Origin: Thermodesulfobacteriota bacterium
Lineage (GTDB): Bacteria > Desulfobacterota > BSN033 > UBA1163
DNA length: 64,000 nt
Direction of reading: 5' to 3'
Assembly (NCBI GenBank): GCA_049513055.1
Contig: JBEKWN010000001.1
Span: 25,120-89,119 of the forward strand
Part shown: piece after piece, positions 1 through 44,031 of the stretch
Position numbering within the stretch: position 1 is the stretch's first letter
Layout: each line of letters starts with the position of its first letter
The notes under the pieces: model-generated
What the model was told of the DNA's origin: nothing
Database searches by the model: none
Seen by the model: only the letters and a program-made list of their open reading frames with translations
Translations under genes and position numbers: made by a program

Positions 1-1
1 G

Positions 2-28968: not shown

Positions 28969-29064
28969 AGGATTATTATTGATAATCTCTTGGGAAAAAA
29001 CAACTTTTTTTTAAATGGGACCTATCTTTTGGTTCTAAACTCTTTACTACGAATTCTTAACTTT

Positions 29065-29301
29065 TTATCTTCTTTCCACCTTCTTTCTTTGTTCAATGGC
29101 CAGTTTACATTCGGCGCAGATGAACCGGGGGAGAGTATGGGGATAGGTGATTCGTTCCTCTCCGAATCCCCAATCAATAATATCCCTCACCAATAACTCT
29201 TCCTTAAACGCATGCCCCAGGCAGAGTCCCATCCCGCAGACGATGCAAATCGCCACGGCATCCTTATCCACTCCCTGCTTTGCACACACATAACACTTCA
29301 T
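29065..29301 (-). CDS. Small Cys-rich protein (DUF2180-like zinc-ribbon?)
   Basis: MKCYVCAKQ...AICIVCGMGLCLGH...CAEC pattern. Confidence 0.35.
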   Translation of the reverse strand: MKCYVCAKQGVDKDAVAICIVCGMGLCLGHAFKEELLVRDIIDWGFGEERITYPHTLPRFICAECKLAIEQRKKVERR

Positions 29302-29436
29302 GGCGGTTCCTCCTGTTTGATGTAAATAAACCTACAGTTAATTTTTACCATGGAAATGGCTAAAAATCAAAAAAGAGAATAAAACATTCAGGAGAGATAA
29401 AGTGACAACGGAGTCTCATTCAATATATGATTGCTT

Positions 29437-30423
29437 CTATTTCATAAGCGAAAATATTTGAATTCGGCTATTGCCCCGATCTGCTATAAAAACCTCTCCC
29501 TTTTCGTTGATGGACATTTGTGATGGAAAATTAAGGAGTCCTTCGTTCCATCCCGCGCTGAGCTGCCGTCCCAGATAAGACCCATCCTGTCCAAGAATAA
29601 CGATGCCACCTCCGTTTTCGTCCACGAGATAAATGATCCCGCGGCTATCTGTGCTGATATTCGTAGGAAAATCTAAATATTCTCTCAGGCTCCTTGTGAG
29701 TGGGGCGAAGCTATTGGAGTCTTTTGCTGCTGAAAAAACCATGGCTTTGACGCAGTCGACCAACAAGACACTGCCTTTCGGATCAACCGCCAGGTCTGAG
29801 AAGAAACCATACTCTTGAGGGAAAGGGATCTGTTTCTGGTATTTCCCTTCCGGGTTGAGGATGAGGACACGGGCCGAGAATATATCGAGGAGGTAGATGT
29901 TATTATTAGCGTCTATCTTAACGCTCCTGGGAATAAAGGCCGATGGGGCGGGCACCCCTTCAGCGTCCACATAGCCCTTTAAGGCTCCTTCGGGCGTTAG
30001 TCTTACAACACGACGTCTTTTCCCGTCAAGGGCGAAGATCTCTCCCTTGGAGTTGAGTTGAACCCTGATGGGATTGGATAGCTGAGGAATCTTGATCTCG
30101 CTCCCGCCTTTTAAGTTCTTCCCTTCCAAGGTATATCGGAGAAGGCGATCGTTTCCAGTGTCTCCAATGACCAGGACAGATTTGTCATTGCAAGCAACCC
30201 CTTCCGGTTGTTTGATCCCTCCACCTCTGTCATCAAAATAGATAGATTGAAGATACTTAAACTTCACCGTCTCAGCACTGAAAGACTTCAATGGGAGAAA
30301 GAAAATGCTGATTAATAAAATAATTAGGCTGGAATAACGGAATAGTGGAATAATGGAATGTTGGGCCCAATATTCCAATCTTCCAATATTCCAACTTTCC
30401 ACTTTTTTGAACGACTTTTGCAT
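29437..30423 (-). CDS. NHL-repeat beta-propeller protein, secreted
   Basis: Repeated NHL-type blades (e.g. DRGNSRIQIFS, GIIYLVDENGGGIVIL); N-terminal hydrophobic signal. Confidence 0.7.
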   Translation of the reverse strand: MQKSFKKVESWNIGRLEYWAQHSIIPLFRYSSLIILLISIFFLPLKSFSAETVKFKYLQSIYFDDRGGGIKQPEGVACNDKSVLVIGDTGNDRLLRYTLEGKNLKGGSEIKIPQLSNPIRVQLNSKGEIFALDGKRRRVVRLTPEGALKGYVDAEGVPAPSAFIPRSVKIDANNNIYLLDIFSARVLILNPEGKYQKQIPFPQEYGFFSDLAVDPKGSVLLVDCVKAMVFSAAKDSNSFAPLTRSLREYLDFPTNISTDSRGIIYLVDENGGGIVILGQDGSYLGRQLSAGWNEGLLNFPSQMSINEKGEVFIADRGNSRIQIFSLMK

Positions 30424-30429
30424 GTTCCT

Positions 30430-31770
30430 TTACCTCTTGTATTGTTTATGACACTGAACGCAAAGATCCGTAACCGTTGGGAACGGAATCAGATATCGGT
30501 ATCCTGTTCCATGAGACCTATGACAACTCAGACAGTCCATCCTAAGATTCTTATTTCTTGAGTCTGCTACCTTCTCGCCCATCGGATGGCTTGTATGTTT
30601 TAACCAGTCATGGCAGGTTCCACAGAGTTCTATCATTGAGGGTTGCTTCAAAAGGAAGACGCTGTCCGAAGCATGGGAGGTATGACAGGCTTCACAATTT
30701 CCTTCCTGGATAGGATTGTGTGTGAGTGCACCCTTCATTACATTGTCTTTTGCAGCAGCTTTTTCCTGCCTTTCTTTCTCCGCAAGTCTCGTTTGCAACC
30801 CCATCGTGTCTTGATGGCACTTTCCACAAAGGCTTTTCATTTCTCCCATGAGGAGGTTCTTCCGTGGGGAGGCATGAGGTTCATGACAGTTCAAGCAACC
30901 CACTTTGTCTACTAAAGGCCAGTGTATCCTATTTTTGCTAAATGTATCGTTCATCATACTGCTGTGGCATCCCCGGCATAGCTCAAACCCCGCCCTCTTG
31001 GTTTTCAGTGCGTCGGCAGAAGTGGAGGCTTCATGGCACTGACCACACATTTTATTGGCAACCGGCTGATGCACATTATCAAACAATATACCCGCTTTAT
31101 CAGAGCCATGAGCATTGTGGCAGGAGGAACAGTCCGCCTTTGCCACAGGATAATTCATGTGTTGCTTGACAAAGTTTGGCTGGTCTGTCTTATGGCAGGT
31201 CACGCAGAGAACAACCAGATCATTTTTCAGAAGATATTTCGCTTTGGTGGAAGCATGTGGATCATGGCAGTTAATACAGCCTTTCTCTACAGGATTATGC
31301 TTGAATTTTGCTTTTGCAACGGTCTCCCCTATATTCTTGTGACAGTCGAAACAGAGATCATTTCCAGCCTTTAGAAGAACAAATTTGTTATTTGAGGCGT
31401 GGGGATCATGGCACTTTACGCAATTACCTTCCGTCACTACTTTATGACTGCTTTTAGGATTCTTAGGTACAATTCCTTCATGACACTTGTTGCAGATTTT
31501 GTTTGGGTCCGCATCCAGCAACTTTCCATGGGAAGAGGTATGAGGGTTATGGCATTCTGAACATTCCCCTGATTTCACAGGGGTATGGATAAATTGGTTT
31601 TTGAGCTTTTCTTTAAAATTGTCATGACAACTCAGACACAACTTTCCCTTTGCATCAGGTTTCAGTTTGAATTTGTTCTGAGCGTAGGAAAGTGAAAATA
31701 TCAAAAGAGACATGAACAAAATTGGTAAGAAGAGCCACTTCAACCTTAATTTCATAGATAGTCCTTTCAC
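30430..31770 (-). CDS. Multiheme c-type cytochrome, 16 CxxCH motifs
   Basis: 16 CxxCH counted in translation, doubled-CxxCH repeat units (C..CH.PH.S...LC..CH), signal peptide; probable start at internal Met 31755. Confidence 0.85.
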   Translation of the reverse strand: MKGLSMKLRLKWLFLPILFMSLLIFSLSYAQNKFKLKPDAKGKLCLSCHDNFKEKLKNQFIHTPVKSGECSECHNPHTSSHGKLLDADPNKICNKCHEGIVPKNPKSSHKVVTEGNCVKCHDPHASNNKFVLLKAGNDLCFDCHKNIGETVAKAKFKHNPVEKGCINCHDPHASTKAKYLLKNDLVVLCVTCHKTDQPNFVKQHMNYPVAKADCSSCHNAHGSDKAGILFDNVHQPVANKMCGQCHEASTSADALKTKRAGFELCRGCHSSMMNDTFSKNRIHWPLVDKVGCLNCHEPHASPRKNLLMGEMKSLCGKCHQDTMGLQTRLAEKERQEKAAAKDNVMKGALTHNPIQEGNCEACHTSHASDSVFLLKQPSMIELCGTCHDWLKHTSHPMGEKVADSRNKNLRMDCLSCHRSHGTGYRYLIPFPTVTDLCVQCHKQYKR

Positions 31771-31780
31771 TTTACTCTTT

Positions 31781-31804
31781 GCGCTATGCTCTATGCCCTC
31801 TGCG
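31781..31804. repeat. GC-rich 9-bp-periodic short repeat element (GCGCTATGC/TCTATGCCC units), copy 1
   Basis: gcgctatgctctatgccctctgcg in 37-bp gap between the two big cytochrome genes. Confidence 0.6.
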
Positions 31805-31807
31805 TTT

Positions 31808-33799
31808 TTATTTAGTTACAATGTGGCAGTCCTCACAGGATCTTCCCGCAAACGGAGGATGAACGACATCTTTGAAGAACTTCGGATCTTTTGAAGCATG
31901 GGGATCATGGCAATTCCTGCAATTCATGACCGAAGCTTCAATACCGATGTGGGCTTTGTCAAACGTGGCCTTCTTATAATCGTGGCATTCCCCGCAGAGC
32001 GGTTGAATCCGCTGATTCAGTAGGATCGGCTCTGCTGAAAAATGAGGCTTGTGGCACCTCTCGCAGTCTCTTGAGGCTGGTTGATGGGCTTTCTCTTTTT
32101 CCATCCTTACCTTCAGGTCTTTATGGCAAGTGAGACAGAGATCAGGGCTCTTTGCTAAAAGGAGCTTGTCTAATTTTGTCTTGTGAGGACTGTGGCACTT
32201 TGTGCATTCCCCATCGACAACTGGTAAGTGTTTGCTTTTGGCTGTGCCAATCTCTTTGCTCAAATCCGGATGGCAGGATAAACAGAGGGGCCCCTGTTTA
32301 TCGACAATCATCCCTTTCACATTGCTTGCATGAGCATTATGACAGGTGAGGCATTCCCCTTCTGCAAAAGGGTTATGGTTCGTGCCGTTCGTCTCCGCTT
32401 TCATGAGATCACCATGACACGAGGCACACATTTTTGCACCCACAAATCTCAGTATATTCTTCTCATTGGACCCGTGGGAACTATGGCAGGCATCACACTT
32501 AGCGTCCATCACTGGACGATGTGTGTAAGTTTTCAAAAACTTCGCTTCTGCATCCGTATGGCATGCATAACAAACCCGGTCCATCCTTTCCTTGATGATG
32601 TTTTTCATATTCGAGCCATGGGGATTATGGCATGAGTTGCATTCTCCCTCAGAAAAAGGAGGATGAGGCACTTTAGGTTTTACCTCTTTCGTTTTCGTAT
32701 GGCAGGAAAAGCAGAGCTCTTCATTCTTCATGTTCAAAAGATTCTTGTTCTTGGCTGCATGGGGTGGATGGCAGGAAAGGCATCCCTTCGCACTGGTCAC
32801 GGGAGTATGCTTAAATCCCACTTTCTCGCTCTGCTCTTTATGACAATCGAAACAGAGATCATTCATCTTTTTCAGTTCAAGCTTCAGATACTCGGAAGTG
32901 TGTGGGTTGTGGCATGTTAAACACTCCCCTTCTTTAAAGGGGCTATGTTCCACAGTGCCGCCAACTTTCAACTTTGAAGCATCGTGACAATTGTAGCAGA
33001 GCTTACTCCCTGTTTCAGTAGTGCCAAAAGGTTTTGGATCCGAAGCTGGCTTATGGCATGCATCACATTGAGCCAAGACAACAGGGTCATGAGCACTCGT
33101 TTTCAGGAGTTTTGCTTGCAATGAAGAATGTGGATTATGGCAGACGGAACAGATGGCTTGATTCACGGGATAATTGGCGTGAGCTTTTCTAAAGGATGGC
33201 TTGCTGATGTCATGACAGCCAAGACAGAGAGGAGTCTCTGCCTTCACCAAAAGGTCTTTTTGGTCAGAACTGTGGGAGAAATGGCACGTTGTACAACCTT
33301 TTGTCCCCACTTTATGGGCTACCTTCTTTTCATAACCCTCCTTTTTGTGACATTGATAGCAAGCTTCATTACCCTCTGCTTTCAACAAGTGACTGGATTG
33401 AGAAGCATGAGGATTATGGCACTGAATGCATTTTCCTCTTTTTAACGCCGTATGCACATTGGCTTTATTCATCCCAATCTTTTCTTTGCTATGGCATGGA
33501 TAGCAGATTTCATTTCCCTCTTTCTTAAGAAGCAGCTTGGGCACTAAGCCGTGCCGGAGATGGCAATCTTCGCATTTTCTCTCCTTCACTACTACGTGAA
33601 CATCTTTCATTCCCAGATACTTCTCAACAAACTTCTTGTGGCAGTCGAGGCATTCCCTACGGGCAAATTTCTTTCCCGAAGTTGGAGCACCTCCTAACGT
33701 CCTCGTCGCCGGTGCTTGGGCACAGGCATAGAGGATGGCTCCAATCATGATGAGAAAGATGACGAACAGAATGGCTTTGTGCTCTTTTAAGAAAGACAT
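31808..33799 (-). CDS. Multiheme c-type cytochrome, 26 CxxCH motifs, probable lipoprotein/secreted
   Basis: 26 CxxCH counted; regular doubled-CxxCH repeats; N-terminal signal ending AILYAC. Confidence 0.85.
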   Translation of the reverse strand: MSFLKEHKAILFVIFLIMIGAILYACAQAPATRTLGGAPTSGKKFARRECLDCHKKFVEKYLGMKDVHVVVKERKCEDCHLRHGLVPKLLLKKEGNEICYPCHSKEKIGMNKANVHTALKRGKCIQCHNPHASQSSHLLKAEGNEACYQCHKKEGYEKKVAHKVGTKGCTTCHFSHSSDQKDLLVKAETPLCLGCHDISKPSFRKAHANYPVNQAICSVCHNPHSSLQAKLLKTSAHDPVVLAQCDACHKPASDPKPFGTTETGSKLCYNCHDASKLKVGGTVEHSPFKEGECLTCHNPHTSEYLKLELKKMNDLCFDCHKEQSEKVGFKHTPVTSAKGCLSCHPPHAAKNKNLLNMKNEELCFSCHTKTKEVKPKVPHPPFSEGECNSCHNPHGSNMKNIIKERMDRVCYACHTDAEAKFLKTYTHRPVMDAKCDACHSSHGSNEKNILRFVGAKMCASCHGDLMKAETNGTNHNPFAEGECLTCHNAHASNVKGMIVDKQGPLCLSCHPDLSKEIGTAKSKHLPVVDGECTKCHSPHKTKLDKLLLAKSPDLCLTCHKDLKVRMEKEKAHQPASRDCERCHKPHFSAEPILLNQRIQPLCGECHDYKKATFDKAHIGIEASVMNCRNCHDPHASKDPKFFKDVVHPPFAGRSCEDCHIVTK

Positions 33800-33820
33800 A
33801 TATTCACCCTTTTAAACCAG

Positions 33821-33844
33821 GCATAGTGCAGAGCGCATAGGGGA
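33821..33844. repeat. Repeat element copy 2 (GCATAGTGC/GCAGAGCGC units)
   Basis: gcatagtgcagagcgcataggggg just upstream of the 26-heme cytochrome start. Confidence 0.6.
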
Positions 33845-33864
33845 TAGAGTAATTAGCTTTGCCA

Positions 33865-35514
33865 TTAATAGGTCAGGTAAACCTTCACATCCGAAACAGC
33901 TCTCAGTTTCTCTGCCCACTCCTCCACGGCTTTTTTAAGCTTATCATCAAAGACTATTCCGGCAATTTTCTTCTTTGCCTCCTCAAAGGGCTGAGGTTTC
34001 GCAGGAATCACATCCTGTATGGCCAGCGCATAGAAATAACCTTCAACACTTTCATATAACCTAAAATCACCAGGTCTTACCCCTGAAATAGATTTACGAA
34101 CTCCTTCAGGTAAATCTTTCGTAGTGAGAAATTTCCCTTCAAAGTTCAAGATGTCTTTACTATTACTCTTATCGATTTGGCCTTCTGCATTTTCCGTCAG
34201 CCACTGAAAGTCCGTACCTTTCCTGAGTTTCTCGAGCGCCGTTTCGGCAAACTCTCTTTTTGCAAAGACGAGGCTGTTGATCTTCATCATTTCCGGCATG
34301 GTATATTCTTTAATGTGATCATTGTAATACGTTTTAAGCTCCTCCTCCTTAAGCTCGATATCTGGGACGACCACTTTTTGAATAAATGCCCCGAAGATCA
34401 CAGAATTCTCATATTCTTTAACCCTGTTCTTATAGGTTTCCGTTTTGTCGATTCTAAGCCTAAGGGCTTCTTTCCTGAATACCCTTTTGTGCAGCATCTC
34501 GTTTAAGGCAGGAATTTTTCTTTCATTCAAATTTTTGCTTTCTATTGCCCTTTCGACCCCATGATAAAGCTGCTGCCTGAGATTATCGGTCAATTCTCCG
34601 ACCGTGATAGGCTTTTCTCCTTGTATCTCTGCGATGACCCGTTTATCCTCAAGAAGTTTTTGGAACCCTGGTTCCTTGGCCTCAAAGTCGATGTCGTCAA
34701 AAACCTTCTTATTCAATTTCACATACTTCTTGATCAGAGCATCATTATAATTCTCTAAAACTCCTTTCTTTTTCAAAACCAGAGCTTCGCGTTTTGCCAT
34801 TTCCCTGGCCTCTTCGCTTTCAGAATACCGAATGTCTTCAACTTTTAATACGGCAAAACCGGATCCCACGGGGATGATAGGGCTCACGGAGCCCGCCTCC
34901 ATCTTAGAAACTGTTTCAGCAACCTGCGGCAACAAGTCTTTTCGGCTCAAATAGTTACTTTCTTCGCCTCCCTTTGCGGCTCCATCCGAAACGACCTTTC
35001 GGGCCACTTCATCGAAACTCTTGCCTTCCTTGATCTCCTCCTCCATCTTCTTCGCGGAATCTTCCTTTTCGAATATGACGGATTTAATCTTCCATTCTTT
35101 TGCTAACTCCTTATAAATCTTTTCAATCTCTTTTTGGTCAGCCTTCACATCTTTCAACTGCCTTTCCGCCAATAACTCCCTGAGTGTGATGCGAGAGAAT
35201 ACATCTACCATATTTTTCACTTCGGGCAACTCATCAAGGCCGATCTTTCTGGCCTCTTGGATAATGAGTTTTGTATTGATCAAGCGCCTCAACAGTTCAG
35301 ACTCCGTACCTTTTTTCCCCTCGGCAGACTTGCTCCCCTTTAAAGAAGAGACCTCCTGGTTGAACTCCTGCAGAGTAATTGGTTCATCATTAACCATGGC
35401 AACTATTTTTTTGCCTTTCATTAATGGCAATTTCTGCTCCGATGCAAATACAGTTGCTTCGATAAGCAAGAAAATAACTAAGACTATTTTTGGTATCAAA
35501 GAAAGATATTTCAT
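33865..35514 (-). CDS. SurA/PpiD-like periplasmic chaperone with parvulin-type PPIase domain(s)
   Basis: Signal peptide MKYLSLIPKIVLVIFLLIEATVFA, SurA_N-like region, rotamase-like segment (PIIPVGSGFAVLKVED); start moved to internal Met so the intergenic repeat is not translated. Confidence 0.5.
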   Translation of the reverse strand: MKYLSLIPKIVLVIFLLIEATVFASEQKLPLMKGKKIVAMVNDEPITLQEFNQEVSSLKGSKSAEGKKGTESELLRRLINTKLIIQEARKIGLDELPEVKNMVDVFSRITLRELLAERQLKDVKADQKEIEKIYKELAKEWKIKSVIFEKEDSAKKMEEEIKEGKSFDEVARKVVSDGAAKGGEESNYLSRKDLLPQVAETVSKMEAGSVSPIIPVGSGFAVLKVEDIRYSESEEAREMAKREALVLKKKGVLENYNDALIKKYVKLNKKVFDDIDFEAKEPGFQKLLEDKRVIAEIQGEKPITVGELTDNLRQQLYHGVERAIESKNLNERKIPALNEMLHKRVFRKEALRLRIDKTETYKNRVKEYENSVIFGAFIQKVVVPDIELKEEELKTYYNDHIKEYTMPEMMKINSLVFAKREFAETALEKLRKGTDFQWLTENAEGQIDKSNSKDILNFEGKFLTTKDLPEGVRKSISGVRPGDFRLYESVEGYFYALAIQDVIPAKPQPFEEAKKKIAGIVFDDKLKKAVEEWAEKLRAVSDVKVYLTY

Positions 35515-35538
35515 CTCACTCCTTTTTCTATACACCAG

Positions 35539-35561
35539 GCGCTCTGCTCTATGCCCTATGC
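35539..35561. repeat. Repeat element copy 3
   Basis: gcgctctgctctatgccctatgc. Confidence 0.6.
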
Positions 35562-35567
35562 TTTCTA

Positions 35568-36659
35568 TCACTTGGCCATCATTTTCCCTATTGACTGAAC
35601 CATCTGGGAAGCCATGGCATGGGCGGTATTGACCCTCCCCCAGTCAAAAAAGAAGACGCCATCGTCCCCCGTATTATAACTGGTGGAACTCCAGACAACC
35701 TCTCTGCTCTTCCTTTCGATCACCTCTGCGGTAAAATCAACTTTCGGTTTTCCAAAACTGCCTTGGTAATCCTGATAATCGAGCACCTGTCCAGTCACGA
35801 CAAGATCGACATTCAACATTGCAAAAATGGCACCAGCGTCAGCCAGAGAAACCCCTTGATCCATGATAATTCTCAAATTGAGAAGCTGCTGTCTCACAAT
35901 ACCTGGTTCAATCACATCGAACTGTTCGAATTCTTTCAAATGCTTGACAAAATGGAGGGATACGATCTCCGCTCCATATTTCCTCTCGCTCCTGTTGAAA
36001 AAGGGGACAACCGCCACAGTGTATTTCCTCTTCCCTTCTATCACGGGTGAACGGAAAGATATCTTTGGTCGAAATTTCCTTTTCACAGACAGCCCTTTGT
36101 TCTCCTTCTGGCCGGAAAGACTTTCTCTTAGAGAGTCTAGCAAACGGTTCAGAGCCTTTTTTTGAAGCGTCTTAGGGTCTTCGATTAAACCTAAACCAAG
36201 AATACCCGGTGAATCATCGCCGGCCAATCCCACATCGTCGATCCACAGTATGGTAGGATTATCTCCGCTGGAAACGAGCCTCAAGGTCAATGCAATTTTG
36301 GGCGGATTCGTTTCATTATAGAGTTCGAGAGAAGTGATGAGCACGGCTTGACAGTCGATCTCATCCTTGAATTCTTTTGCCGTTATCTTATCGATACCTC
36401 CGGTGTAACGAATGCGATGCTTCGCCATAAATTTCTCGAGAGCATCCTCCTGAAGCACATCGATTCCCCTTGCCTTTAAACCATCCATAAGAGCTCCTCT
36501 TATCTCTTTAAGGGGCGACGCAGTTCCACTAAGGTTCTCCATTGGCAGGACGGCAATGAGGAATCGTTCTCCCATTCCGGGAAGATTTTCTTTCGTCGCC
36601 TCTTTCCCGGTTGCGCATCCGATAAGGAAAAGAAGCCCCGCAAAGAAAACAATTGTCAT
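35568..36659 (-). CDS. Lipoprotein with two LpoB/CsgG/TolB-N-like domains
   Basis: Lipobox LFLIGC; repeated modules FLIAVLPMENLSG... and YTVAVVPFFNRSE...VDLVVTGQV; start taken at MTIVFF to avoid overlap. Confidence 0.5.
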   Translation of the reverse strand: MTIVFFAGLLFLIGCATGKEATKENLPGMGERFLIAVLPMENLSGTASPLKEIRGALMDGLKARGIDVLQEDALEKFMAKHRIRYTGGIDKITAKEFKDEIDCQAVLITSLELYNETNPPKIALTLRLVSSGDNPTILWIDDVGLAGDDSPGILGLGLIEDPKTLQKKALNRLLDSLRESLSGQKENKGLSVKRKFRPKISFRSPVIEGKRKYTVAVVPFFNRSERKYGAEIVSLHFVKHLKEFEQFDVIEPGIVRQQLLNLRIIMDQGVSLADAGAIFAMLNVDLVVTGQVLDYQDYQGSFGKPKVDFTAEVIERKSREVVWSSTSYNTGDDGVFFFDWGRVNTAHAMASQMVQSIGKMMAK

Positions 36660-36660
36660 T

Positions 36661-37233
36661 TTATTTAAAAAGCTTGTTAACGAGATCATTCACAGCCTTG
36701 TCAGTAATGTCATTCATGGGCCTGCCACCCCCACCCAAGAGGCGATCCCAGATGCTGATCCCGCCTTTCGTCGTGGACGCAGTCCATACCACCTTCCCGG
36801 TCGTCCCCTCCATCATCTGGAGACTGACGGATATAATATTTGCAGAACTGGTACCTGACCTCACCTCACCATACTCTTTAACCACCCCCGTTACAACGGC
36901 CTGGGCTTTGATAAGTCCCGACAATTTTACGACCTCTTCTTGAGAAGGAGCAGCAGGATTCTGGATCTCTGCCCTGGCAATCCCTCTTGCAACCTCGCCA
37001 ATGGGGAGTACATATACAGCACCTGTGGATAATAGCTTGTTGATAAAGACATCTCTCACCCGTTCGCCAGCAATATTATCCCTTGTAAAGTTTAGGAAAG
37101 GCATGGCGGCAATGGTCTGTATCGCCCCGAAATCCATGTTTGGATCACGGTATATATTAGTTGTGGCACAAGCTGATACAAAGACGGGAACCAAAAACAA
37201 CAGAATTTTTAATAGACTGAAAGGTTTCTTCAT
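36661..37233 (-). CDS. Lipoprotein with one LpoB/CsgG/TolB-N-like domain
   Basis: Lipobox VFVSAC; IAAMPFLNFT...AQAVVTGVVKEYGE motif resembling previous gene. Confidence 0.5.
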   Translation of the reverse strand: MKKPFSLLKILLFLVPVFVSACATTNIYRDPNMDFGAIQTIAAMPFLNFTRDNIAGERVRDVFINKLLSTGAVYVLPIGEVARGIARAEIQNPAAPSQEEVVKLSGLIKAQAVVTGVVKEYGEVRSGTSSANIISVSLQMMEGTTGKVVWTASTTKGGISIWDRLLGGGGRPMNDITDKAVNDLVNKLFK

Positions 37234-37335
37234 AACCGACAGGACTCCCCCCCTTTTCCCAAAAAAAAATTAGATTGTGTGAAAATCGTCATTGAATTTC
37301 AATATCTAATACTTTTCCTATCTTGTCAATATCGC

Positions 37336-39507
37336 TCATAAAAATATCTTCAAATTAGCACTGAAACCGTTCGAATCCGATTTTTCCAATTTAGACGAAG
37401 TATGGATATACTGATAAGACAGGTCTAAGAAGGAACGGCTCGTTATATTCCATCTCACGCTTGGGGTTATCAGTCTGTTCTTCTGGTTATTTTCGGACAA
37501 TATGCTCTCATTATAGGAAAAATTAAATTGAAGCGTCCCTTCCGGAAAAGGTGACCAGTTGAGCCCGTAATTCTGGGTCGTCTGAATCTTCTGACCTTTT
37601 TGCGCTAATATTTCCCATGAGGTAAAGATATATAACGTTTCAAAAGGACGGTAGGCTACACTCAAGTCTCCCCTCCTTGCAGAAGTAGAAGTAGACGGCA
37701 GACCGCCACCAGATTGGTTTGTCGTTGTATCAGAGTAAATCAGAGTTATTGTCGTGGTTCTGTGGGGAACGATATTTGCGCCGAAATTGATGACGGTGTT
37801 GTTCTGCTTTTGACCTGTCTCTAAGGTCGAAAAATTGTACCCCCCACCGAGATTAATATCGATCCCTTTGTACAATGTTGCATTGTTTTGCAGAAAGATT
37901 GAATTATTCTTTGTTGATTTCCCACCAATCTCTTCTATGCGTCCACTATAGATGAGATTGTGCCGAAGGGTTGTCAACGGAGTGGCAACGATTGAGGCAT
38001 TGTATACGTAGGCCCACCTTTTCTTCCCCTCTTCAGTGCCATCTTCTCTTGCTACTCTCGCGCTCCCTGAAAAGATGGGATTAAACCTGTGATTCACTGA
38101 CAACCCGTTCGAAACAGTGTACGTGGTCTGACCAAGGTCTGTTTTGTCGAGGAAATAAGAGAACTCATAAAAAAGCGTGGGGATATCCAAAATCCTTGTT
38201 CTTGAATCGATGTTAAGAATATGGGTAAGTTTCGTGGTTCTGCCTTTCACCTGTTCCGCAGGCTTCTTTATAAATGCCTGCAACTCTGTGATGAAAATGT
38301 TTGGAAAACTTATTGCCCCGCTGACAAAATTTTGAAGGGGGAGGGTCACCACCTTTATATATCTTGTCGTTACTGGATTTATGAAGTTGATTTCAAAACG
38401 GTTTTGGAATTGTCCGGGAGAAACAGTAACGCCTAAAACTTGCGTCCAATTCAGGTTATCTGAACTTGTCCATACTTGGATATTTGAAAAAAAGAAGGTT
38501 AAAATGTTCGTTGCTGCAGAAAGGTCCCTATCAACCCACAGGAAGAGGCTGTTTACCTGTGTTGAAACCAAAAAATCGAGGCCTACCTGCCTTAGGCTCG
38601 TCGTATCTCCACCAAGAGGAGGAAGTCCAATATTGATGCCGGCGCTTGTAGTGGTATTCCCGTCAATGAGAGCTGGATTGGAATCAAGTGTTATGGGACT
38701 AGCCGTAATATTAATAATAGAAAGCCCTGCAAAAGGAGAAATTTGGGAGCTTACCGTTCCTCCTTTGCCTGTTGCAGTGGTATTGGTTTCTTCATAAGTG
38801 ATGTTGTAACTCCCGTTAAAAGAAACCCGGTTGTTAAAAAACATATCCGAGTAAGTAATTCTTCCGGTGTTCAGGTAATCTTTCGTGTCCACTCCGTTCA
38901 ATTTGTCTTTTGTATCGGTATACGTACCTTGATATCTGACATCGAGGTTCTTATACGTATATCTGGCGCTCAATAAACCATAGTCAGTGGTGGTATCCTG
39001 AATACTATGTTTTTCATCAAAGAGATTAGTTCGGGTAAGCCGCACATCGATGACCGGAAGTCCCTCGGGCCTCCAGCCTAAAATGACATTGTAGTCCTCA
39101 TTCACAGTAGTAACACCGGGGGAACCTGAAGTTTTCACTGTTTCCTGCCTTCTGTCATAACCGATTCCAGCCGTATAGAGGGGGGTGTTGAGCGTAAGGT
39201 TGATATAGGGACGCAGGTCGGTCGTATCCGATTTCGTTCTCATTCCATCAGTTTTGTCCCAGGAAATATTCTTTTCAACAACGACGCCAGCATCCAATCT
39301 CAAATTAGGAAAGATGTTTGTGTTTACCGTAAGGGTCACTCGAGGATTGAAATTATTCGTTACTGTTTTGGTAGTCACCCCCGTCGCATCTGTTGTCTTC
39401 GTAGATAAAAAATTATAGTTTAACTCTAAGAGGCCGCTTACGCCTTGAAGGAGTCCCTGTGCACTCGCCATGCCCGGTAACAACACCAAGACCAGCAAGA
39501 TAAGCAT
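37336..39507 (-). CDS. Predicted large outer-membrane beta-barrel protein (~720 aa)
   Basis: Signal peptide MLILLVLVLLPGMASA, Thr/Asn/Ser/Tyr-rich alternating amphipathic strands throughout, no TM helices; start moved from 39540 to Met at 39507. Confidence 0.45.
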   Translation of the reverse strand: MLILLVLVLLPGMASAQGLLQGVSGLLELNYNFLSTKTTDATGVTTKTVTNNFNPRVTLTVNTNIFPNLRLDAGVVVEKNISWDKTDGMRTKSDTTDLRPYINLTLNTPLYTAGIGYDRRQETVKTSGSPGVTTVNEDYNVILGWRPEGLPVIDVRLTRTNLFDEKHSIQDTTTDYGLLSARYTYKNLDVRYQGTYTDTKDKLNGVDTKDYLNTGRITYSDMFFNNRVSFNGSYNITYEETNTTATGKGGTVSSQISPFAGLSIINITASPITLDSNPALIDGNTTTSAGINIGLPPLGGDTTSLRQVGLDFLVSTQVNSLFLWVDRDLSAATNILTFFFSNIQVWTSSDNLNWTQVLGVTVSPGQFQNRFEINFINPVTTRYIKVVTLPLQNFVSGAISFPNIFITELQAFIKKPAEQVKGRTTKLTHILNIDSRTRILDIPTLFYEFSYFLDKTDLGQTTYTVSNGLSVNHRFNPIFSGSARVAREDGTEEGKKRWAYVYNASIVATPLTTLRHNLIYSGRIEEIGGKSTKNNSIFLQNNATLYKGIDINLGGGYNFSTLETGQKQNNTVINFGANIVPHRTTTITLIYSDTTTNQSGGGLPSTSTSARRGDLSVAYRPFETLYIFTSWEILAQKGQKIQTTQNYGLNWSPFPEGTLQFNFSYNESILSENNQKNRLITPSVRWNITSRSFLDLSYQYIHTSSKLEKSDSNGFSANLKIFL

Positions 39508-39508
39508 G

Positions 39509-39525
39509 GCGCATAGCGCAGAGCG
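39509..39525. repeat. Repeat element copy 4
   Basis: gcgcatagcgcagagcg immediately 5' of the chosen start of the beta-barrel gene. Confidence 0.55.
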
Positions 39526-39648
39526 TAGATCGTATTTCATCCAGAAAGCCCTTATAGCTATGTGACTTGGTAGAAAAAGTGGAATAGGATGCTTCGGATT
39601 GAACGCCTAACCAAATTTAACCGCTTTGAGTTATTCAAATTTTTCTCA

Positions 39649-39679: not shown

Positions 39680-39680
39680 G

Positions 39681-41099
39681 TTACCGTTCTCCCATCATCG
39701 TCACCCAGTACGGGCTCTCCCCCACATCGACGATGAAAACCATCTTTTTACTGATAAGATTGGAACCCATTAAAGTTTTCATTCCAGGATTTATCATGAC
39801 AAGGTTATTCTCTTGGCCATCGATGGTCATATAGCTTATGCCTCCACCCGTATTGATAAAATCCACAGGGACGAATGAAAAAGGGTTATACGCCTCCACC
39901 ACCGTATCGTTTTTTCTCCCGAGATAGACGAGATCCGTGTTCGTTTCGACCTTTATAGACTCCATCCCCATCCTTACTTGAAACCTTCTTGCCACCGAGA
40001 GAGAAAGAGGATCTATAGCACTCACGTAAGAAGACCACTCATGAATGACATAAATTTTATCACCGTTTCTGTTAAACTGACCTCTCAAAGGACTTGGATC
40101 TGTCCCTATGGTAGCCAAAAGCATTTTGTTCGGAATATCGATAACAGAGACAGTGCTGGCCATGGTATTGAAGACATAAGCTCTCCTCCCTGTAGAATCT
40201 ATCAAGACCGAATTCGGCCCGTTTCCAACCTTGAGTCTGTTCACCTCTATTAGAGAACTGGTATCGATGAAACTCACGGTATTCGACCCTGGATTCACGG
40301 TAAGAAGAAGTCTGTTATCAGGGGTAAGGGCAAGCTCCTGAGGATGATCTCCGGTATTCAGGCGAATCCTGTCGATAACGTCTTCTGCAACCACGTCCAC
40401 AATAGCAATTGCGTCATCTCCTGAGAGTGCCACATAGCCTCTCCTCAATTTTTGGTCGAGGGCCATTCCCATGGGTTTTCTCCCGGTTGCGATGATGGCC
40501 ACGGCGAGCCCCGCCTGTTTGTCAAAAACTGTGATATTGCTGGAACCGGGGTTAGTAACGTATCCTGCAAGATTTGAAAGAGGCTTGCCAGGAATAGACA
40601 TGGAGAATACAGGACTGAAGCTGAAGCCACCTTTTATTGATTCAGGATATTTAAACCTCGCTGAAATAAGGTACGCCTTCTTTCTTGCCACATTAAATGA
40701 AAAGTCAATTTTTACCGGCTCTTCAGGAGATCGAAGGGTAGCTTCTCCCTCTTCCACTTTTAAGACAGCACTTTGAACCAGAAATGAAAGTCCACTATAT
40801 GAGCCTTGAGGCAGCCTGCCTGAAGCAAGAAGTCGCTGCCTTTTCATATCAGGGCCTTTCAACTGGTGCAGGGAAACATCAAGCGCGAATTCCCGACCAT
40901 CGCTGCTTACGGCAAAAACTTTCTCAAGGGTGAATCTGAGCCTGTCTGCCTCTTGAGGGAGAGGTTGGATATAAAGGTAGATTTCTCCTTCTTCTTCAAG
41001 GGGTGGCCTCACTGTTGAGATTGCTGCTTGGCAACCCACGATTACGAAAAGAACGCAGAGGGCATAGAGTATAGCGCATAGCGTTTTCTTAAAGGTCAT
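39681..41099 (-). CDS. YVTN-family beta-propeller lipoprotein
   Basis: Lipobox VIVGCQAA; YVTN-type repeats (GYVTNPGSSNITVFD, YVALSGDDAIAIVDV etc.). Confidence 0.6.
   Translation of the reverse strand: MTFKKTLCAILYALCVLFVIVGCQAAISTVRPPLEEEGEIYLYIQPLPQEADRLRFTLEKVFAVSSDGREFALDVSLHQLKGPDMKRQRLLASGRLPQGSYSGLSFLVQSAVLKVEEGEATLRSPEEPVKIDFSFNVARKKAYLISARFKYPESIKGGFSFSPVFSMSIPGKPLSNLAGYVTNPGSSNITVFDKQAGLAVAIIATGRKPMGMALDQKLRRGYVALSGDDAIAIVDVVAEDVIDRIRLNTGDHPQELALTPDNRLLLTVNPGSNTVSFIDTSSLIEVNRLKVGNGPNSVLIDSTGRRAYVFNTMASTVSVIDIPNKMLLATIGTDPSPLRGQFNRNGDKIYVIHEWSSYVSAIDPLSLSVARRFQVRMGMESIKVETNTDLVYLGRKNDTVVEAYNPFSFVPVDFINTGGGISYMTIDGQENNLVMINPGMKTLMGSNLISKKMVFIVDVGESPYWVTMMGER
41055..41083. repeat. Repeat element copy 6, overlapping codons of the signal peptide of 39681-41099
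   Basis: gcagagggcatagagtatagcgcatagcg. Confidence 0.55.
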
Positions 41100-41289
41100 T
41101 TTACAGCACCTCCATCTGTTGATAAACTCCCTTTGGTGGAACCAGCCAGATTTTGCGAGAAACCGAACCCTAAGACTATTAAATCTTATAACTCTTCCAA
41201 ATTCAACTACAAAAAAAGAGGGCTGACATTTTTGCCAGCCCTCTTGGCATTCTACGTCGAGACAGGATATCTCGACATTTCAGCACGCA

Positions 41290-42612
41290 TTAGTCTTTTA
41301 CGTGGCACTTGTTGCAGAGAGACCTCTGAAATGTCGCGTACATGCTCGGAGGCCTACCATACATTGCCGCCGGATACTCGGTTTTATTATATATGCTAGT
41401 TGCAGTAGCTGAGACAGGATAGGCACTACTTTCGGTAATAAATTCAAAGTCGTTGTCCCATCTGGTCATGTGGTCAAATCCGGTTGCATGCGCCCTGTGG
41501 CAGGAGAGGCACATCACGTTTTCAGATCCTCCATTTGGTCCCCCTATCACTGAGCCATCGCTCACTGCGTGCTTAGCGAGAGCTACCCGGTCCGAAGTAT
41601 GCTCCTCATAAGGCACCATTGAGGTGTATGAGTTAGCTGACGTACCGCTCAGGTCGCCCGACTTTACATACATGTTGTAGTTAGTGTATGCATCCACTAT
41701 ACTACCCTTCAACACGGCGGCGTTACTTGCCGGGTGAATCAAATTTGAACTTAAGCTATCGTTGTGAATTGCTGTATGGCAATTCGTACACCATTCTGAC
41801 ATGCCCTGACCATAAGCAACCCTGGTATCAGTGGAGGTCTCTTGCCTGTTGTACGAGCTGGGCGCCACAGCAAAAGGCGGATCGTAATTAAAGGCAGGAC
41901 CACCAGCATAAGACTTCGGCAAATAGCTTTTACCACCCAGCAGTCGGTATACACCCACGGTATCTGTTCCGGTTGGTATAGCGCCAGTAGAACCGGACCC
42001 TATAATAGGACCGGGAGTCGATCCTGCTCCGCCCCGGTATACGAGCGTACCACTGGCGTTTATTCTGGCGGATGGATGCGGATCGTGACAACTGATGCAG
42101 CTAAGGTTGTTTGCTGAGTAAGTACCGCCAGGGGCGGTGTGTAGCGTACTATCTGGTAATGCCAACCCCGAAAAATCTGTGGCGACAACGTTATGGCCGT
42201 GTCTCTCGCCGAGAACTGCTGCCGTATGCATATCACTCGTAGCGGTGTAAGTAAATGTCAGCCAAGCGAAGTCTCCACCCGGAGTATAGTTAGCAGGAAC
42301 CTGTGTCCCTTGTTTGGCGTCGCTGGTAAACACGTGGTAGCTGCTAGCACTGGCCGCCTTGCTTGCGTGGCAGAACAGACAGGTGGAACTCTGGTCAGTT
42401 CCTATGAGAAGGGACTGATTACCCGTGTATTGAGCAGCCTTCCCACTTAACCCTTTCTGTGCAGCCTTTACACCTCCAACGGAGTTGTGCATGGTATGGC
42501 ATCCATCGCATGTTGCAACGCCGCCTTCATGGAAGGCATATGCCATTCCGCTTAAACCAATAGTTACCAGGGCTGCAGCCATGATAACCAAACTTAACTT
42601 CACTGCTTTCAT
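41290..42612 (-). CDS. OmcS-family hexaheme c-type cytochrome (homolog of the Geobacter nanowire-forming cytochrome OmcS)
   Basis: Signal peptide then FHEGGVATCDGCHTMHNS; 6 CxxCH; matches OmcS across length including RVAYGQGMSEWCTNCHT, CLSCHRAHATGFD and C-terminal QRSLCNKCHVKD. Confidence 0.85.
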   Translation of the reverse strand: MKAVKLSLVIMAAALVTIGLSGMAYAFHEGGVATCDGCHTMHNSVGGVKAAQKGLSGKAAQYTGNQSLLIGTDQSSTCLFCHASKAASASSYHVFTSDAKQGTQVPANYTPGGDFAWLTFTYTATSDMHTAAVLGERHGHNVVATDFSGLALPDSTLHTAPGGTYSANNLSCISCHDPHPSARINASGTLVYRGGAGSTPGPIIGSGSTGAIPTGTDTVGVYRLLGGKSYLPKSYAGGPAFNYDPPFAVAPSSYNRQETSTDTRVAYGQGMSEWCTNCHTAIHNDSLSSNLIHPASNAAVLKGSIVDAYTNYNMYVKSGDLSGTSANSYTSMVPYEEHTSDRVALAKHAVSDGSVIGGPNGGSENVMCLSCHRAHATGFDHMTRWDNDFEFITESSAYPVSATATSIYNKTEYPAAMYGRPPSMYATFQRSLCNKCHVKD

Positions 42613-42812: not shown

Positions 42813-42834
42813 TAGCCCTTTTTATAAAAAGGAA

Positions 42835-43806
42835 TCAGTCGTACTTCACCTGGAAAACGCTGACTCCTCTCCTTGCACTCTGGCTCACGTAAATCCTTCC
42901 CATATTATCTACGGTTAATTCCATGGGTGCGATCAAATTACCGGGCCCATATCCGCGGTAGCCAAATTCTTTTAGGAACTTGAAATCCTTATCAAAGACC
43001 ATGACCACGCTTCTTAATGTGTCAGTCAGATACAAATATCCTTTATCATCAGATGCAATGCCTCCAACGATATTAAATTTCCCCGGAGCGCTTCCCCTTT
43101 GGCCAAAAGATACTATTTTGCGATCAGGGGAGAGTTTGAAAGCTTGAAAAATCGTAGGAATAGTAAAAAAGATATTTCCTTCCTTATCCACATTGAAGCC
43201 TACGATGCCCGTATCGGCCCTTTTCTTTTCATCAAAATGGAGAAGAGCAGCCAGGTCGTAGCCATCCAGATAAGCACCGCTCATATCGGTCACTGCAACC
43301 CTCATCTGACCTTTGTCGATCAGATAGAGGCGACCTTCTCTATAAATGATGCTGCTTGGCGAGATCCTGGAGAAATCGGAAGGAAGATTTTGTGGTTCGA
43401 ATCTCGATATAACCTCTCCCCTGTAATTGCAGCGGATAATCGAATAACTTTTTCCTTTTACATCATGTTTGTAAGAGAGCAGAAGAATGTTTCCATCCTT
43501 ATCAACGGCGAGGTGAGCTATATTAATATTTCCAAGGTCGCTGTCCTCGCCGAAATTGTAAATTTCCATTCCATTTTCATTAAATATCCTCACAGACCGG
43601 TCCGACCCGTCGCACACATACACCTCGTTCGTTTCCTTATCAAGAGCAAGTTCTACCCAGCTGTAAGGTATTGCACCCGTAAAGCTTGAGAGGTTGTAAA
43701 GATATGATGCCTTTACGGGTTGTCCCTCTACAATTCCGGAAGAAAGAACCAAAAAAGCAATTGCGATTAGGATCAATAACTGTTTTGCCGGGTATCTCAT
43801 ATTCAT
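42835..43806 (-). CDS. NHL-repeat beta-propeller protein, secreted
   Basis: Signal peptide; NHL-like blades (YVCDGSDRSVRIFN, YLYLTDTLRSVVMVFD, GRIYVSQSARRGVSVFQV). Confidence 0.65.
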   Translation of the reverse strand: MNMRYPAKQLLILIAIAFLVLSSGIVEGQPVKASYLYNLSSFTGAIPYSWVELALDKETNEVYVCDGSDRSVRIFNENGMEIYNFGEDSDLGNINIAHLAVDKDGNILLLSYKHDVKGKSYSIIRCNYRGEVISRFEPQNLPSDFSRISPSSIIYREGRLYLIDKGQMRVAVTDMSGAYLDGYDLAALLHFDEKKRADTGIVGFNVDKEGNIFFTIPTIFQAFKLSPDRKIVSFGQRGSAPGKFNIVGGIASDDKGYLYLTDTLRSVVMVFDKDFKFLKEFGYRGYGPGNLIAPMELTVDNMGRIYVSQSARRGVSVFQVKYD

Positions 43807-44031
43807 AACTCTTTGCTATTTCTATAGAGCAAGCCCCATGCCAAAACTCTTCGAATCGTTGCCGCAAAAACCTTTTAAAAATAGAAGAGAAAAGCTTTTA
43901 AATTCAATATATTAGATGAGGCAAAAAAAGGGGTACGAAGCTATTGATTTGTAGTCCATGTGAAAGTAGGTGCTTATTAGCGTAATATCCCGCACCTCTG
44001 TGGATTCTCCCACAATGATATTGTTAAAACC

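Follow-up and report, generated by a model that had tools for sequence, protein, structure and literature searches.

What could be the role of two adjacent genes whose products carry 26 and 16 CxxCH heme-binding motifs, and which GenBank labels merely "cytochrome c3 family protein"? There is continuing debate over the way in which electrons of the inner membrane reach cytochrome filaments outside the cell; diffusing periplasmic triheme cytochromes are the answer given in the present literature. Both genes lie on the minus strand of the window, the whole 64,000-nt stretch of DNA that was analysed, which comes from an uncultured member of the Thermodesulfobacteriota: a 26-heme c-type cytochrome of the OscI (GSU2495) type (31808..33799, 663 aa), followed by a 16-heme c-type cytochrome of the OscJ (GSU2494) type (30430..31770, an ORF of 446 aa). 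For the latter, an ATG at 31755 with an AAAGGA Shine-Dalgarno-like sequence, giving 441 aa, is a more likely start than the GTG at 31770; GenBank MGA2314798.1 holds the protein in its 441-aa form. Exact regular-expression searches returned 26 and 16 CxxCH motifs, in agreement with the counts of an earlier sequence-only reading of this DNA, and no CxxxCH, CxxxxCH or CxxCK variants in either cytochrome. All 32 cysteines of the 16-heme protein fall inside motifs, as do 52 of the 53 in the 26-heme protein, the last one being Cys26 of a lipobox. A chance origin of the motifs is excluded, because composition-matched shuffles contained on average 0.16-0.32 of them and never more than 4. A miscount through frameshifts, which the earlier reading had named as one observation that would overturn it, did not come to light: at least 24 independent contigs carry an identical 26-heme protein and intact orthologues keep the motif counts, which rules out that the ORFs are frameshift artefacts or pseudogenes. 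A mis-split 42-heme gene is likewise ruled out by the TAA stop, the 52-nt spacer, the separate ribosome-binding site and signal peptide, and the recurrence of the split in about 26 genomes.

The doubled-CXXCH architecture proposed from the letters alone, for which an HMM search had been suggested as the check, was recovered with curated models. With a score higher than the curated cut-off and repeats of ~41 residues, each holding two CxxCH, as the criterion, Pfam Paired_CXXCH_1 (PF09699, cut-off 20.6) matched 13 stretches of the 26-heme protein (E=1.7e-140, 457 bits) and 8 of the 16-heme protein (E=1.7e-87, 287 bits), and TIGR01905 scored 437 and 273 bits, respectively, against a cut-off of 25.2. 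The repeat itself had been misjudged: the doubled unit spans about 48 aa, not ~30, with a heme spacing of 24.2 aa (24-26 aa per heme overall), and the proposed consensus C..CH.PH.S....LL...LC..CH, taken literally, has no match. A relaxed form, C..CH..H-15-C..CH, fits 10 of the 13 pairs in the 26-heme protein, the mature apoprotein of which has a mass of 70.7 kDa (about 87 kDa with hemes); the last four hemes of the 16-heme protein are irregularly spaced, which gives this part the look of a cytochrome c3-type module. Outside the motifs, exactly 26 histidines are invariant in the 26-heme family, one per heme, and the 16-heme family has 14 invariant histidines plus 2 conserved at 88%. A conserved second histidine per heme fits bis-His ligation in both proteins. 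Beyond the Cys and His columns, an alignment of 24 26-heme homologues has no conserved stretch of 7-10 residues.

The AlphaFold model of the 26-heme protein (pLDDT 90.8) has a sole match in the PDB, MtrA, with probability 1.00 and a target-normalised TM of 0.63 over all 265 residues; MtrA (6R2Q_A) is also the nearest solved relative by sequence (E=4e-20 and 4e-17 for the two cytochromes). MtrA arranges ten bis-His hemes across 80 Å (PMC7198977). The MtrA/DmsE/PioA decaheme family (TIGR03508; 6R2Q chain A) thus shares with the pair the doubled-CXXCH units and bis-His ligation, but has 10 hemes as against 16 and 26. Membership in it was rejected, the 16-heme protein scoring 169.2 bits, below the cut-off of 192.2, and the 313.5 bits of the 26-heme protein, which has 26 hemes and not ten, being the sum of six partial stretches. 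The resemblance in fold is real, and we place both proteins outside the decaheme family, as proteins that would work like MtrA. HmcA of Desulfovibrio and the c7-polymer "nanowire" cytochromes of the GSU1996 type likewise hold many bis-His c-type hemes per chain, but are built from a different repeat unit. HmcA nominally equals the smaller protein with its 16 hemes, and the hexadecaheme model (NF045713) gave 53.1 and 61.5 bits against a required 400. The c7 triheme "nanowire_3heme" domain (TIGR04257) was rejected with 23 bits against 40 for the 16-heme protein and no match for the 26-heme protein, and NrfB/NrfH membership was rejected on curated cut-offs.

Covalent attachment of c-type hemes happens outside the cytoplasm, and both proteins carry N-terminal export signals, as had been claimed from the sequence. 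The 16-heme protein starts with an ordinary Sec signal peptide that ends in SYA/QN and has no lipobox. The N-terminus of the 26-heme protein is a hydrophobic stretch ending in a lipobox, ILYA/C at Cys26, that passes a PROSITE-type rule (a PS51257-type pattern that asks for [LVI..][..][AGS]C between residues 15 and 40, preceded by hydrophobic residues free of charge); the earlier suggestion that this protein may be lipidated (AILYAC) therefore stands as a prediction from sequence. Both qualify as c-type cytochromes with predicted export to the periplasm and predicted heme loading. Among 28 syntenic 26-heme orthologues, a lipobox occurs in 5, all of them in the source clade (the five closest orthologues), and the other 23, Geobacter and Geomonas included, have plain signal-peptidase I sites. 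Of 26 more distant homologues with 26 hemes, 17 have one, as do 6 of 66 42-heme homologues (see below); the lipobox is not a feature of the 26-heme family as a whole.

MtrC and OmcA are lipoprotein cytochromes exposed at the outside of the outer membrane, and a lipidated 26-heme protein might likewise sit there as a cell-surface or extracellular wire, acting as a surface reductase or filament anchor. The lipobox of the source clade and of the more distant homologues would suit such a placement, as would weak Pfam matches to MtrC/MtrF domains II/IV. We nevertheless consider it highly improbable, given the signal-peptidase I sites of most syntenic orthologues, cultured Geobacter and Geomonas among them, and a fold that matches the periplasm-facing MtrA and not MtrC. 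In addition, GSU2495 (oscI) and GSU2494 (oscJ) of Geobacter sulfurreducens are both predicted to be periplasmic, according to PMC13194489, which cites Shen et al. 2025.

The two genes belong to a minus-strand cluster that opens with an NHL/six-bladed beta-propeller of 323 aa (42835..43806; domain search and synteny) and an OmcS-family hexaheme cytochrome of 440 aa (41290..42612), which has six CxxCH, aligns over its full length with PDB 6EF8 (phmmer E=1.1e-106) and keeps the CHTMH N-terminal motif. Directly 3' of this gene lies a strong terminator-like hairpin with a 13-bp stem and a T-run (41216..41245, minus strand). Exactly eight genes follow the OmcS homologue. The first encodes a YncE-like beta-propeller lipoprotein of 472 aa in the OscD position (39681..41099; Pfam YNCE, lipobox, synteny) and the second an outer-membrane beta-barrel of 734 aa in the OscE position (37336..39540), with about 26-28 strands and, at roughly 260-430, an inserted domain of ~160 residues that resembles discoidin domains in appearance. 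Next come two lipoproteins assigned by synteny and lipobox: one of 190 aa, LpoB/GNA1162-like in a domain search (OscF position, 36661..37233), and one of 373 aa (OscG position, 35568..36689) that matched no Pfam family and is related in its C-terminal half to its LpoB-like neighbour. A SurA-like, PpiC-type peptidyl-prolyl isomerase (OscH position, 33865..35571, true start probably about 35514; Pfam Rotamase_2 and SurA_N_2) precedes the 26-heme and 16-heme genes. The last gene, in the GSU2493 position, encodes an NHL-repeat beta-propeller of 328 aa (29437..30423; Pfam NHL E=6e-15) and begins 6 nt past the end of the 16-heme gene. A search of the whole window against Rfam returned no RNA family.

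This arrangement is that of the G. sulfurreducens "omcS companion" (osc) block, eight genes (GSU2500-GSU2493) that follow the hexaheme gene GSU2501 and include GSU2495 with 26 hemes and ~70 kDa (bioRxiv 10.1101/2025.11.06.686851; PMC2996986). The two loci share the adjacent pair of giant cytochromes, the 26 motifs and the mass of the larger protein, and the block of propeller, barrel, two lipoproteins, prolyl isomerase, two cytochromes and NHL protein after an OmcS-like hexaheme; OscD is described with 473 aligned residues in PMC13194489, close to the 472 aa of the YncE-like propeller. From Geobacter sp. AOG1, Geomonas and published descriptions, we infer that the pair corresponds to OscI/OscJ, within a conserved cluster for conductive OmcS-type protein filaments, a known kind of system. 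Gene order in Geobacter sp. AOG1 and three Geomonas species is as at the source locus, with orthologues only about 57% identical to the proteins described here. The loci differ in the N-terminus of the 26-heme protein (a lipobox in the source clade versus a signal-peptidase I site in Geobacter and Geomonas) and in the upstream hexaheme genes, one here versus omcS, omcT and GSU2501 in G. sulfurreducens. Apart from the osc cluster, no machinery dedicated to OmcS-type filaments is known to us. No conserved omcS neighbours are described by Portela et al. 2024, and the literature outside the primary osc paper (Shen et al. 2025) yielded no experiment on OscI/OscJ function and no assigned role.

A genome scan for relatives, seeded with the single 26-heme protein, found the order OmcS-like, YncE, barrel, two lipoproteins, PPIase, 26-heme, 16-heme and NHL kept in about 30 genomes of Thermodesulfobacteriota (including Geobacter and Geomonas), Nitrospirota and Ca. 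Schekmanbacteria. Intact orthologues in about 26-28 genomes hold 26 and 16 motifs, so that the counts are fixed across phyla. The PPIase gene stands directly upstream of the 26-heme gene in every locus, versions that are split (L029) or fused (L048) included, and the NHL gene follows the 16-heme gene in about 28. These four genes are the tightest conserved unit and form an autonomous module.

Both this tight conservation and the link of the osc block to nanowire maturation and secretion (bioRxiv 10.1101/2025.11.06.686851 and PMC13194489) could be taken to mean that the cytochromes are biogenesis factors. Alongside the NHL propeller and the SurA-like isomerase, they would then act on the OmcS-type subunits, chaperoning or templating them or keeping them reduced while these are exported and polymerise. 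We find this very unlikely: an MtrA-type chain of bis-His hemes is an electron-transfer architecture, Pfam and curated HMM searches found no chaperone-like domain in the cytochromes, and the adjoining isomerase may equally serve the folding of the proline-containing repeat cytochromes themselves.

Elsewhere the two proteins occur as one. All 71 homologues with exactly 42 hemes, from Zixibacteria/GN15/FCB-group MAGs and annotated "cytochrome c3 family protein", are collinear fusions of a 26-heme part and a mature 16-heme part (30-37% identity), joined at the place where the 16-heme signal peptide would be; they are single polypeptides, mostly without a lipobox, in contrast to the two separate proteins of the source locus. 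Osc-like genes accompany the fusion in two of three contexts, one of which has PPIase, 42-heme and NHL genes in an osc-like cluster; within 10 kb of one Zixibacteria fusion, none was found. The cross-phylum fixity of the 26/16 counts, the 71 collinear fusions and the match to MtrA as the only structure are new here.

The Zixibacteria fusion that lacks osc neighbours is what might be expected of a periplasmic electron reservoir, buffer (capacitor) or general shuttle wired to no specific outer-membrane partner, in which 42 hemes would store charge or equalise the redox potential of the periplasm. The very high heme density, the periplasmic location predicted in Geobacter and the frameshift of oscJ in a long-term anode-evolved G. 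sulfurreducens line (PMC13194489), from which it follows that oscJ is dispensable, at least there, would also be in keeping with it. Storage would, however, tolerate variable heme numbers, so the strict conservation of the counts argues against such a role; exact numbers and order beside PPIase, NHL and filament genes kept across phyla point instead to a specific structural role, and we hold a reservoir to be distinctly unlikely.

A specific role could also be that of a strict MtrAB-type porin-cytochrome conduit, in which one of the rods, the 16-heme protein being the likeliest candidate, passes through the 734-aa barrel in the way MtrA passes through MtrB and hands electrons directly to the OmcS-like cytochrome outside; the osc "secretion channel" would then be, or also be, an electron conduit. 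The cytochromes are MtrA-like in sequence and fold, the barrel of about 26-28 strands has MtrB as its top Foldseek match, and a porin-cytochrome complex has three components (PMC7198977), namely a barrel, an MtrA-like cytochrome and an extracellular cytochrome. Moreover, the 16-heme module is C-terminal in the fusions, and in MtrA it is the C-terminus that faces outward. The resemblance of the barrel to MtrB is generic only, and by sequence there is no mtrB-type gene in the neighbourhood. We regard such a conduit as unlikely.

The fixed counts, the Rosetta-stone fusion (26+16=42), the MtrA-like fold and the PPIase-26-16-NHL module together suggest a single long periplasmic heme cable, and we think it probable, with appreciable reservation, that the OscI/OscJ-type pair is an MtrA-type cable of this sort serving the OmcS-type filament system. 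Both proteins would be exported to the periplasm, the 26-heme protein with an N-terminal lipid anchor in the source lineage, and would fold as MtrA-type rods, that is, closely packed bis-His heme chains with minimal polypeptide. Acting as one unit, effectively a 42-heme cable, they would bridge the periplasm for respiratory electrons on their way to the components in the outer membrane (the 734-aa barrel and the lipoproteins), from which electrons would pass to the OmcS-type filament encoded upstream. The direction of flow, the partners, the localisation and the link to filament charging are thus proposed from fold and gene context, which are consistent with the earlier suggestion of long-range periplasmic or outer-surface electron transfer. 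Extrapolation from the 80 Å of ten-heme MtrA would give straight rods of ~220 Å and ~130 Å. A stricter form, a rigid, end-to-end 42-heme cable of ~35 nm that spans the entire periplasm, plugs into the barrel/lipoprotein complex and directly feeds the base of the filament, is possible but doubtful; if true, it would hard-wire the inner membrane to the nanowire, either in place of diffusing triheme carriers or in addition to them, and the exact numbers of 26, 16 and 42 hemes kept across phyla would be the mark of a length tuned to how wide the cell envelope is. Against a cable of either form stand the dispensability of oscJ in the evolved line, the Zixibacteria fusion without nearby osc genes, and the report that the periplasmic triheme cytochromes PpcA-E reduce OmcS filaments directly (PMC10954620), which means that a dedicated cable is not required.

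The source locus is no new kind of system, and the comparative results give testable constraints on OscI/OscJ. As a metagenome marker of filament-type extracellular electron transfer, the 26+16 pair with its neighbouring SurA-like isomerase and NHL propeller is also far more specific than OmcS-like hexahemes alone.

The cluster also differs from G. sulfurreducens osc in its regulatory surroundings, a sigma-54 promoter with an adjoining heme-sensor kinase and activator. A -24/-12 element of the sigma-54 type, TGGCATGGGGCTTGC (43829..43843, minus strand), lies 23 nt upstream of the gene that opens the cluster and recurs at the equivalent place in four other loci (L012, L029, L034 and L037); the background frequency is 1 per ~100 kb. 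Sigma-54-like sites across the window number 48 versus 43.5 expected, which is no excess over chance; what carries weight is solely the conserved position of the one site that precedes the cluster. On the same strand, domain searches identified a sigma-54-dependent response regulator with receiver, AAA+ and Fis-type HTH domains (44250..45626) and a histidine kinase (45690..47198), putatively a redox sensor based on heme, the periplasmic sensor domain of which has one CxxCH.

Two adjacent minus-strand ORFs, at 31808-33799 (663 aa) and 30430-31770 (446 aa), had been read from the sequence alone as c-type cytochromes with 26 and 16 CxxCH motifs. Both ORFs are present at these positions, and a regular-expression count returned exactly 26 and 16 motifs and no variant heme motif in either protein. 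All cysteines of the 16-heme protein lie inside CxxCH motifs, and the single cysteine outside them in the 26-heme protein is located in its signal peptide; shuffling the residues of the 26-heme and 16-heme proteins yielded on average 0.3 and 0.2 motifs, respectively, with a maximum of 4. The Pfam model Paired_CXXCH_1 matched 13 stretches of the 26-heme protein (E=1.7e-140) and 8 of the 16-heme protein (E=1.7e-87), which bears out the proposed doubled-CXXCH architecture, and a TIGR01905 search was concordant for both. The suggested unit of ~30 aa has to be revised, as we measured 24.2 residues per heme or ~48 per doubled unit; the literal consensus offered for it has zero matches, and a relaxed form fits 10 of the 13 units. 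Assignment of either protein to the decaheme family proper, to HmcA or to the c7-polymer family was rejected, the curated cut-offs not being reached.

A frameshift artefact can be ruled out for the motif counts: independent assemblies contain at least 24 contigs on which the identical 26-heme protein is predicted, GenBank lists the 16-heme protein as MGA2314798.1 in a Thermodesulfobacteriota MAG, and the numbers are unchanged in intact orthologues from other genomes. The two genes are separate, with a TAA stop, a 52-nt spacer and a signal peptide for each product. For the 16-heme gene the most likely start codon is ATG 31755, giving 441 aa, since it is preceded by an AAAGGA ribosome-binding site and used in the GenBank annotation. 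The polypeptide is minimal, at 24.5 (26-heme) and 26 (16-heme) residues per heme, and the mature apoproteins have masses of 70.7 and 46.4 kDa.

Export of both proteins is predicted, as had been proposed. The 16-heme protein carries an ordinary signal peptide ending SYA|QN; in the larger protein, MSFLKEHKAILFVIFLIMIGAILYA|C satisfies a PROSITE-type lipobox rule at Cys26, in agreement with the suggestion that it may be lipidated. This lipobox is common to the five closest orthologues and to 17 of 26 more distant 26-heme homologues, and the Geobacter, Geomonas and most Nitrospirota orthologues have AxA cleavage sites instead, so that the predicted lipid anchoring is lineage-specific rather than a family character. 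A lipid anchor is what display of the 26-heme protein on the cell surface might draw upon; we regard such display as very improbable, and the Geobacter sulfurreducens counterparts discussed below are both predicted to be periplasmic (PMC13194489).

The pair lies inside a run of minus-strand genes, upstream being towards higher coordinates. The first cluster gene encodes an NHL propeller (42835-43806) and is followed by an OmcS-family hexaheme cytochrome (41290-42612), a YncE-like propeller lipoprotein of 472 aa (39681-41099), a 734-aa predicted outer-membrane beta-barrel without a Pfam family (37336-39540), an LpoB/GNA1162-like lipoprotein (36661-37233), a second lipoprotein (35568-36689), a SurA-like prolyl isomerase (33865-35571), the 26-heme and 16-heme genes and a second NHL propeller (29437-30423). 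The hexaheme, named only 'cytochrome C' in GenBank, is a full-length OmcS homologue (phmmer against 6EF8, E=1.1e-106) with an N-terminal FH.GGVA.C.GCHTMH segment. Its mature N-terminus, FHEGGVATCDGCHTMH, retains the His equivalent to OmcS His16, which serves as the inter-subunit heme ligand in the filament. The second lipoprotein is related, in its C-terminal half, to the LpoB-like one, which suggests an internal duplication within putative channel components. In the barrel, an all-beta domain (residues about 260-430) is inserted behind approximately strand 11, probably on the extracellular side; precomputed Pfam F5/8-type-C (discoidin) matches in a few barrel homologues suggest a surface ligand-binding module.

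Upstream of the cluster lie genes for a sigma-54-dependent response regulator (44250-45626, minus strand) and for a histidine kinase (45690-47198, minus strand) whose periplasmic sensor domain contains one CxxCH (…RPECFQCHDKK…) and which may control the cluster as a redox sensor with a c-type heme. A sigma-54 -24/-12 element, TGGCATGGGGCTTGC, of the form TGGCAY-N5-TTGC, closely precedes the first cluster gene (43829-43843, minus strand). Four other genomes have this element in the corresponding position (at L012:131 and, in L029, L034 and L037, in the divergent intergenic region), the background frequency being one per about 100 kb; the Geomonas loci lack it. The OmcS-like gene is immediately followed by a strong terminator-like hairpin (41216-41245, minus strand; a 13-bp stem with 7 GC pairs, then TTTTTGT), with no comparable site further down the cluster, a pattern suggesting that the subunit gene is highly expressed and that transcription partly reads through into the accessory genes. 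The cluster is followed at 28600-29301 (minus strand) by genes for a Cys-rich DUF2180 protein of 78 aa and a free-standing response-regulator receiver; their counterparts in the closest MAGs (L005-L009, L033) are 82-100% identical, and more distant loci have neither at the corresponding position.

A scan of one genome per species yielded 40 loci, and all cluster proteins of the window were searched against them. The conserved order is OmcS-like, YncE, barrel, two lipoproteins, isomerase, 26-heme, 16-heme and NHL. The core formed by the last four genes is kept in about 30 of the 40 loci, including Geobacter sp. AOG1, three Geomonas species, a Ca. Schekmanbacteria MAG and many Thermodesulfobacteriota and Nitrospirota MAGs; roughly 20 of these have the full order, the rest being truncated or rearranged. 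Intact orthologues have 26 and 16 hemes throughout, even in a Desulfuromonadales cluster of only 33% identity, the exceptions being MAG genes that are truncated or carry a frameshift, and two loci that have 25. At L029, and judging by strand also at L034 and L037, the cluster is divided into divergently transcribed modules, NHL-OmcS-YncE-barrel-lipoproteins and isomerase-26-16-NHL, marking the latter as the tightest unit.

This arrangement corresponds to a described Geobacter system. According to a 2025 preprint, all Geobacter genomes in which an OmcS-like hexaheme of the GSU2501 type occurs carry the eight-gene block GSU2500-GSU2493 downstream of it, and GSU2495 is a protein of ~70 kDa with 26 hemes (bioRxiv 10.1101/2025.11.06.686851); 26 motifs were also noted in GSU2495 and its G. 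bemidjiensis orthologue (PMC2996986). GSU2495 and GSU2494 are named oscI and oscJ in a 2026 Geobacter evolution paper, which counts them among the genes of the 'osc (omcS companion)' operon described by Shen et al. 2025 and, in its account of that study, attributes folding to OscH, secretion to OscE/F/G and filament morphology to OscD (PMC13194489). The expression observations in the accessible literature concern gsu2495 alone, which declines along with omcS during Pd(II) reduction and reportedly rises in an omcB mutant on Fe(III) oxide. In the window, exactly eight genes follow the hexaheme, their domain types match, the YncE-like propeller has 472 aa as against the 473 residues over which OscD is described (PMC13194489), and the 26-heme apoprotein is close in mass to GSU2495. 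Because these features agree, we are highly confident that the pair is the OscI/OscJ-type pair of an osc cluster, the GSU proteins being compared by description; it adds one more example to a widespread system that was named recently, and is not a new kind. The accessible literature, which excludes Shen et al. 2025, assigns no role to OscI or OscJ. Their place beside the isomerase would suit a role in biogenesis, which we consider quite improbable.

That the two cytochromes act together is suggested by single-chain homologues. The best 120 homologues retrieved with the 26-heme protein include 26 with exactly 26 motifs and 71 with exactly 42. Each of the 71 is a fusion whose residues about 28-670 match the 26-heme protein from end to end, and whose residues about 682-1057 align with the 16-heme protein from residue ~40, past its signal peptide. 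At L048 the order is isomerase, 42-heme fusion and NHL, then hexahemes of the OmcS type and three proteins (724, 187 and 350 aa) that are related to the window lipoproteins; in L047 a cytochrome, a 554-aa protein, an LpoB-like lipoprotein, an NHL propeller and hexahemes come after the fusion. Such Rosetta-stone fusions are good evidence that the window pair functions as one 42-heme unit.

In an alignment of the 26-heme protein with 23 homologues (32-54% identity), the 26 CxxCH motifs and exactly 26 other His are invariant, and beyond these only G84, L138, L184, L355, P574, P649 and F650; among 16-heme orthologues (n=26), 14 non-motif His are invariant and two more 88% conserved. Each heme is thereby provided with one distal His, the signature of bis-His hemes. 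Their sole significant solved sequence relative is 6R2Q chain A (E=4e-20 and 4e-17), the decaheme MtrA (PMC7198977); the fold search names the entry 'Structure of the Mtr complex', and the label 'Cystathionine beta-synthase' given to 6R2Q_A in the PDB sequence table appears wrong. An AlphaFold2 model of the 26-heme protein from a 56-sequence alignment (mean pLDDT 90.8, pTM 0.70) matched MtrA alone in the whole PDB, with probability 1.00 and a TM-score of 0.63 normalised to MtrA, over all 265 residues at 30% identity. MtrA holds ten bis-His hemes at edge distances of 3.9-6.5 Å over a total span of 80 Å (PMC7198977); by linear extrapolation, rods of roughly 220 Å (26 hemes) and 130 Å (16 hemes) may be inferred. 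Given this relationship and the barrel in the cluster, a strict MtrAB-like threaded conduit comes to mind, which we judge unlikely.

The best-supported reading overall, and one we hold to be probable, is that the 26-heme and 16-heme proteins would together form an MtrA-type periplasmic heme cable, through which electrons might travel toward the barrel/lipoprotein complex and the OmcS-type filament; for the conduit role of this particular pair we see even chances. Against the cable stand the ability of PpcA-E to reduce OmcS directly (PMC10954620), a frameshift in oscJ in an anode-evolved strain (PMC13194489), and the Zixibacteria fusion (L045), which has no such osc-like neighbours within 10 kb. 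The many hemes might alternatively serve as a periplasmic capacitor, a distinctly unlikely explanation in our estimate. The sequence-only observation was correct, and its interpretation as long-range electron transfer essentially right. The fixed 26, 16 and 42 heme numbers, the fusion, the autonomous four-gene module and the MtrA fold make the idea of a putative cable that would span the periplasm and serve cytochrome nanowires concretely testable.

Compared with L005, the closest MAG, 29065-43806 shows mosaic divergence: the 26-heme, 16-heme, NHL and DUF2180 proteins are 84-100% identical, whereas identity is only 50-68% for the OmcS-like, NHL, barrel and YncE proteins, a contrast indicating much faster evolution or recombination in that half of the cluster which putatively faces outward. 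A tandem heptamer, (GCATAGR)n, for example GGCATAGAGCATAG, occurs in 12 copies within 2 mismatches, against 0.28 expected, mostly in the intergenic spacers of the cluster and in both orientations. It was located at 31784 (the 26-heme/16-heme spacer), 33820, 35542-35562, 42774-42794, 44212-44232 and 50613, and is restricted to the closest MAGs (L005-L009, L033); two of the 12 matches (33725, 41061) are coding coincidences, both encoding the signal-peptide segment AILYA. It may be a REP-like element or an RNA structure. Finally, positions 1-4000 have 55-56% GC, against 40-48% in the rest of the window, and code for the C-terminal portion of an RND pump of the AcrB type as well as for an outer-membrane efflux protein; this segment may have been horizontally acquired.
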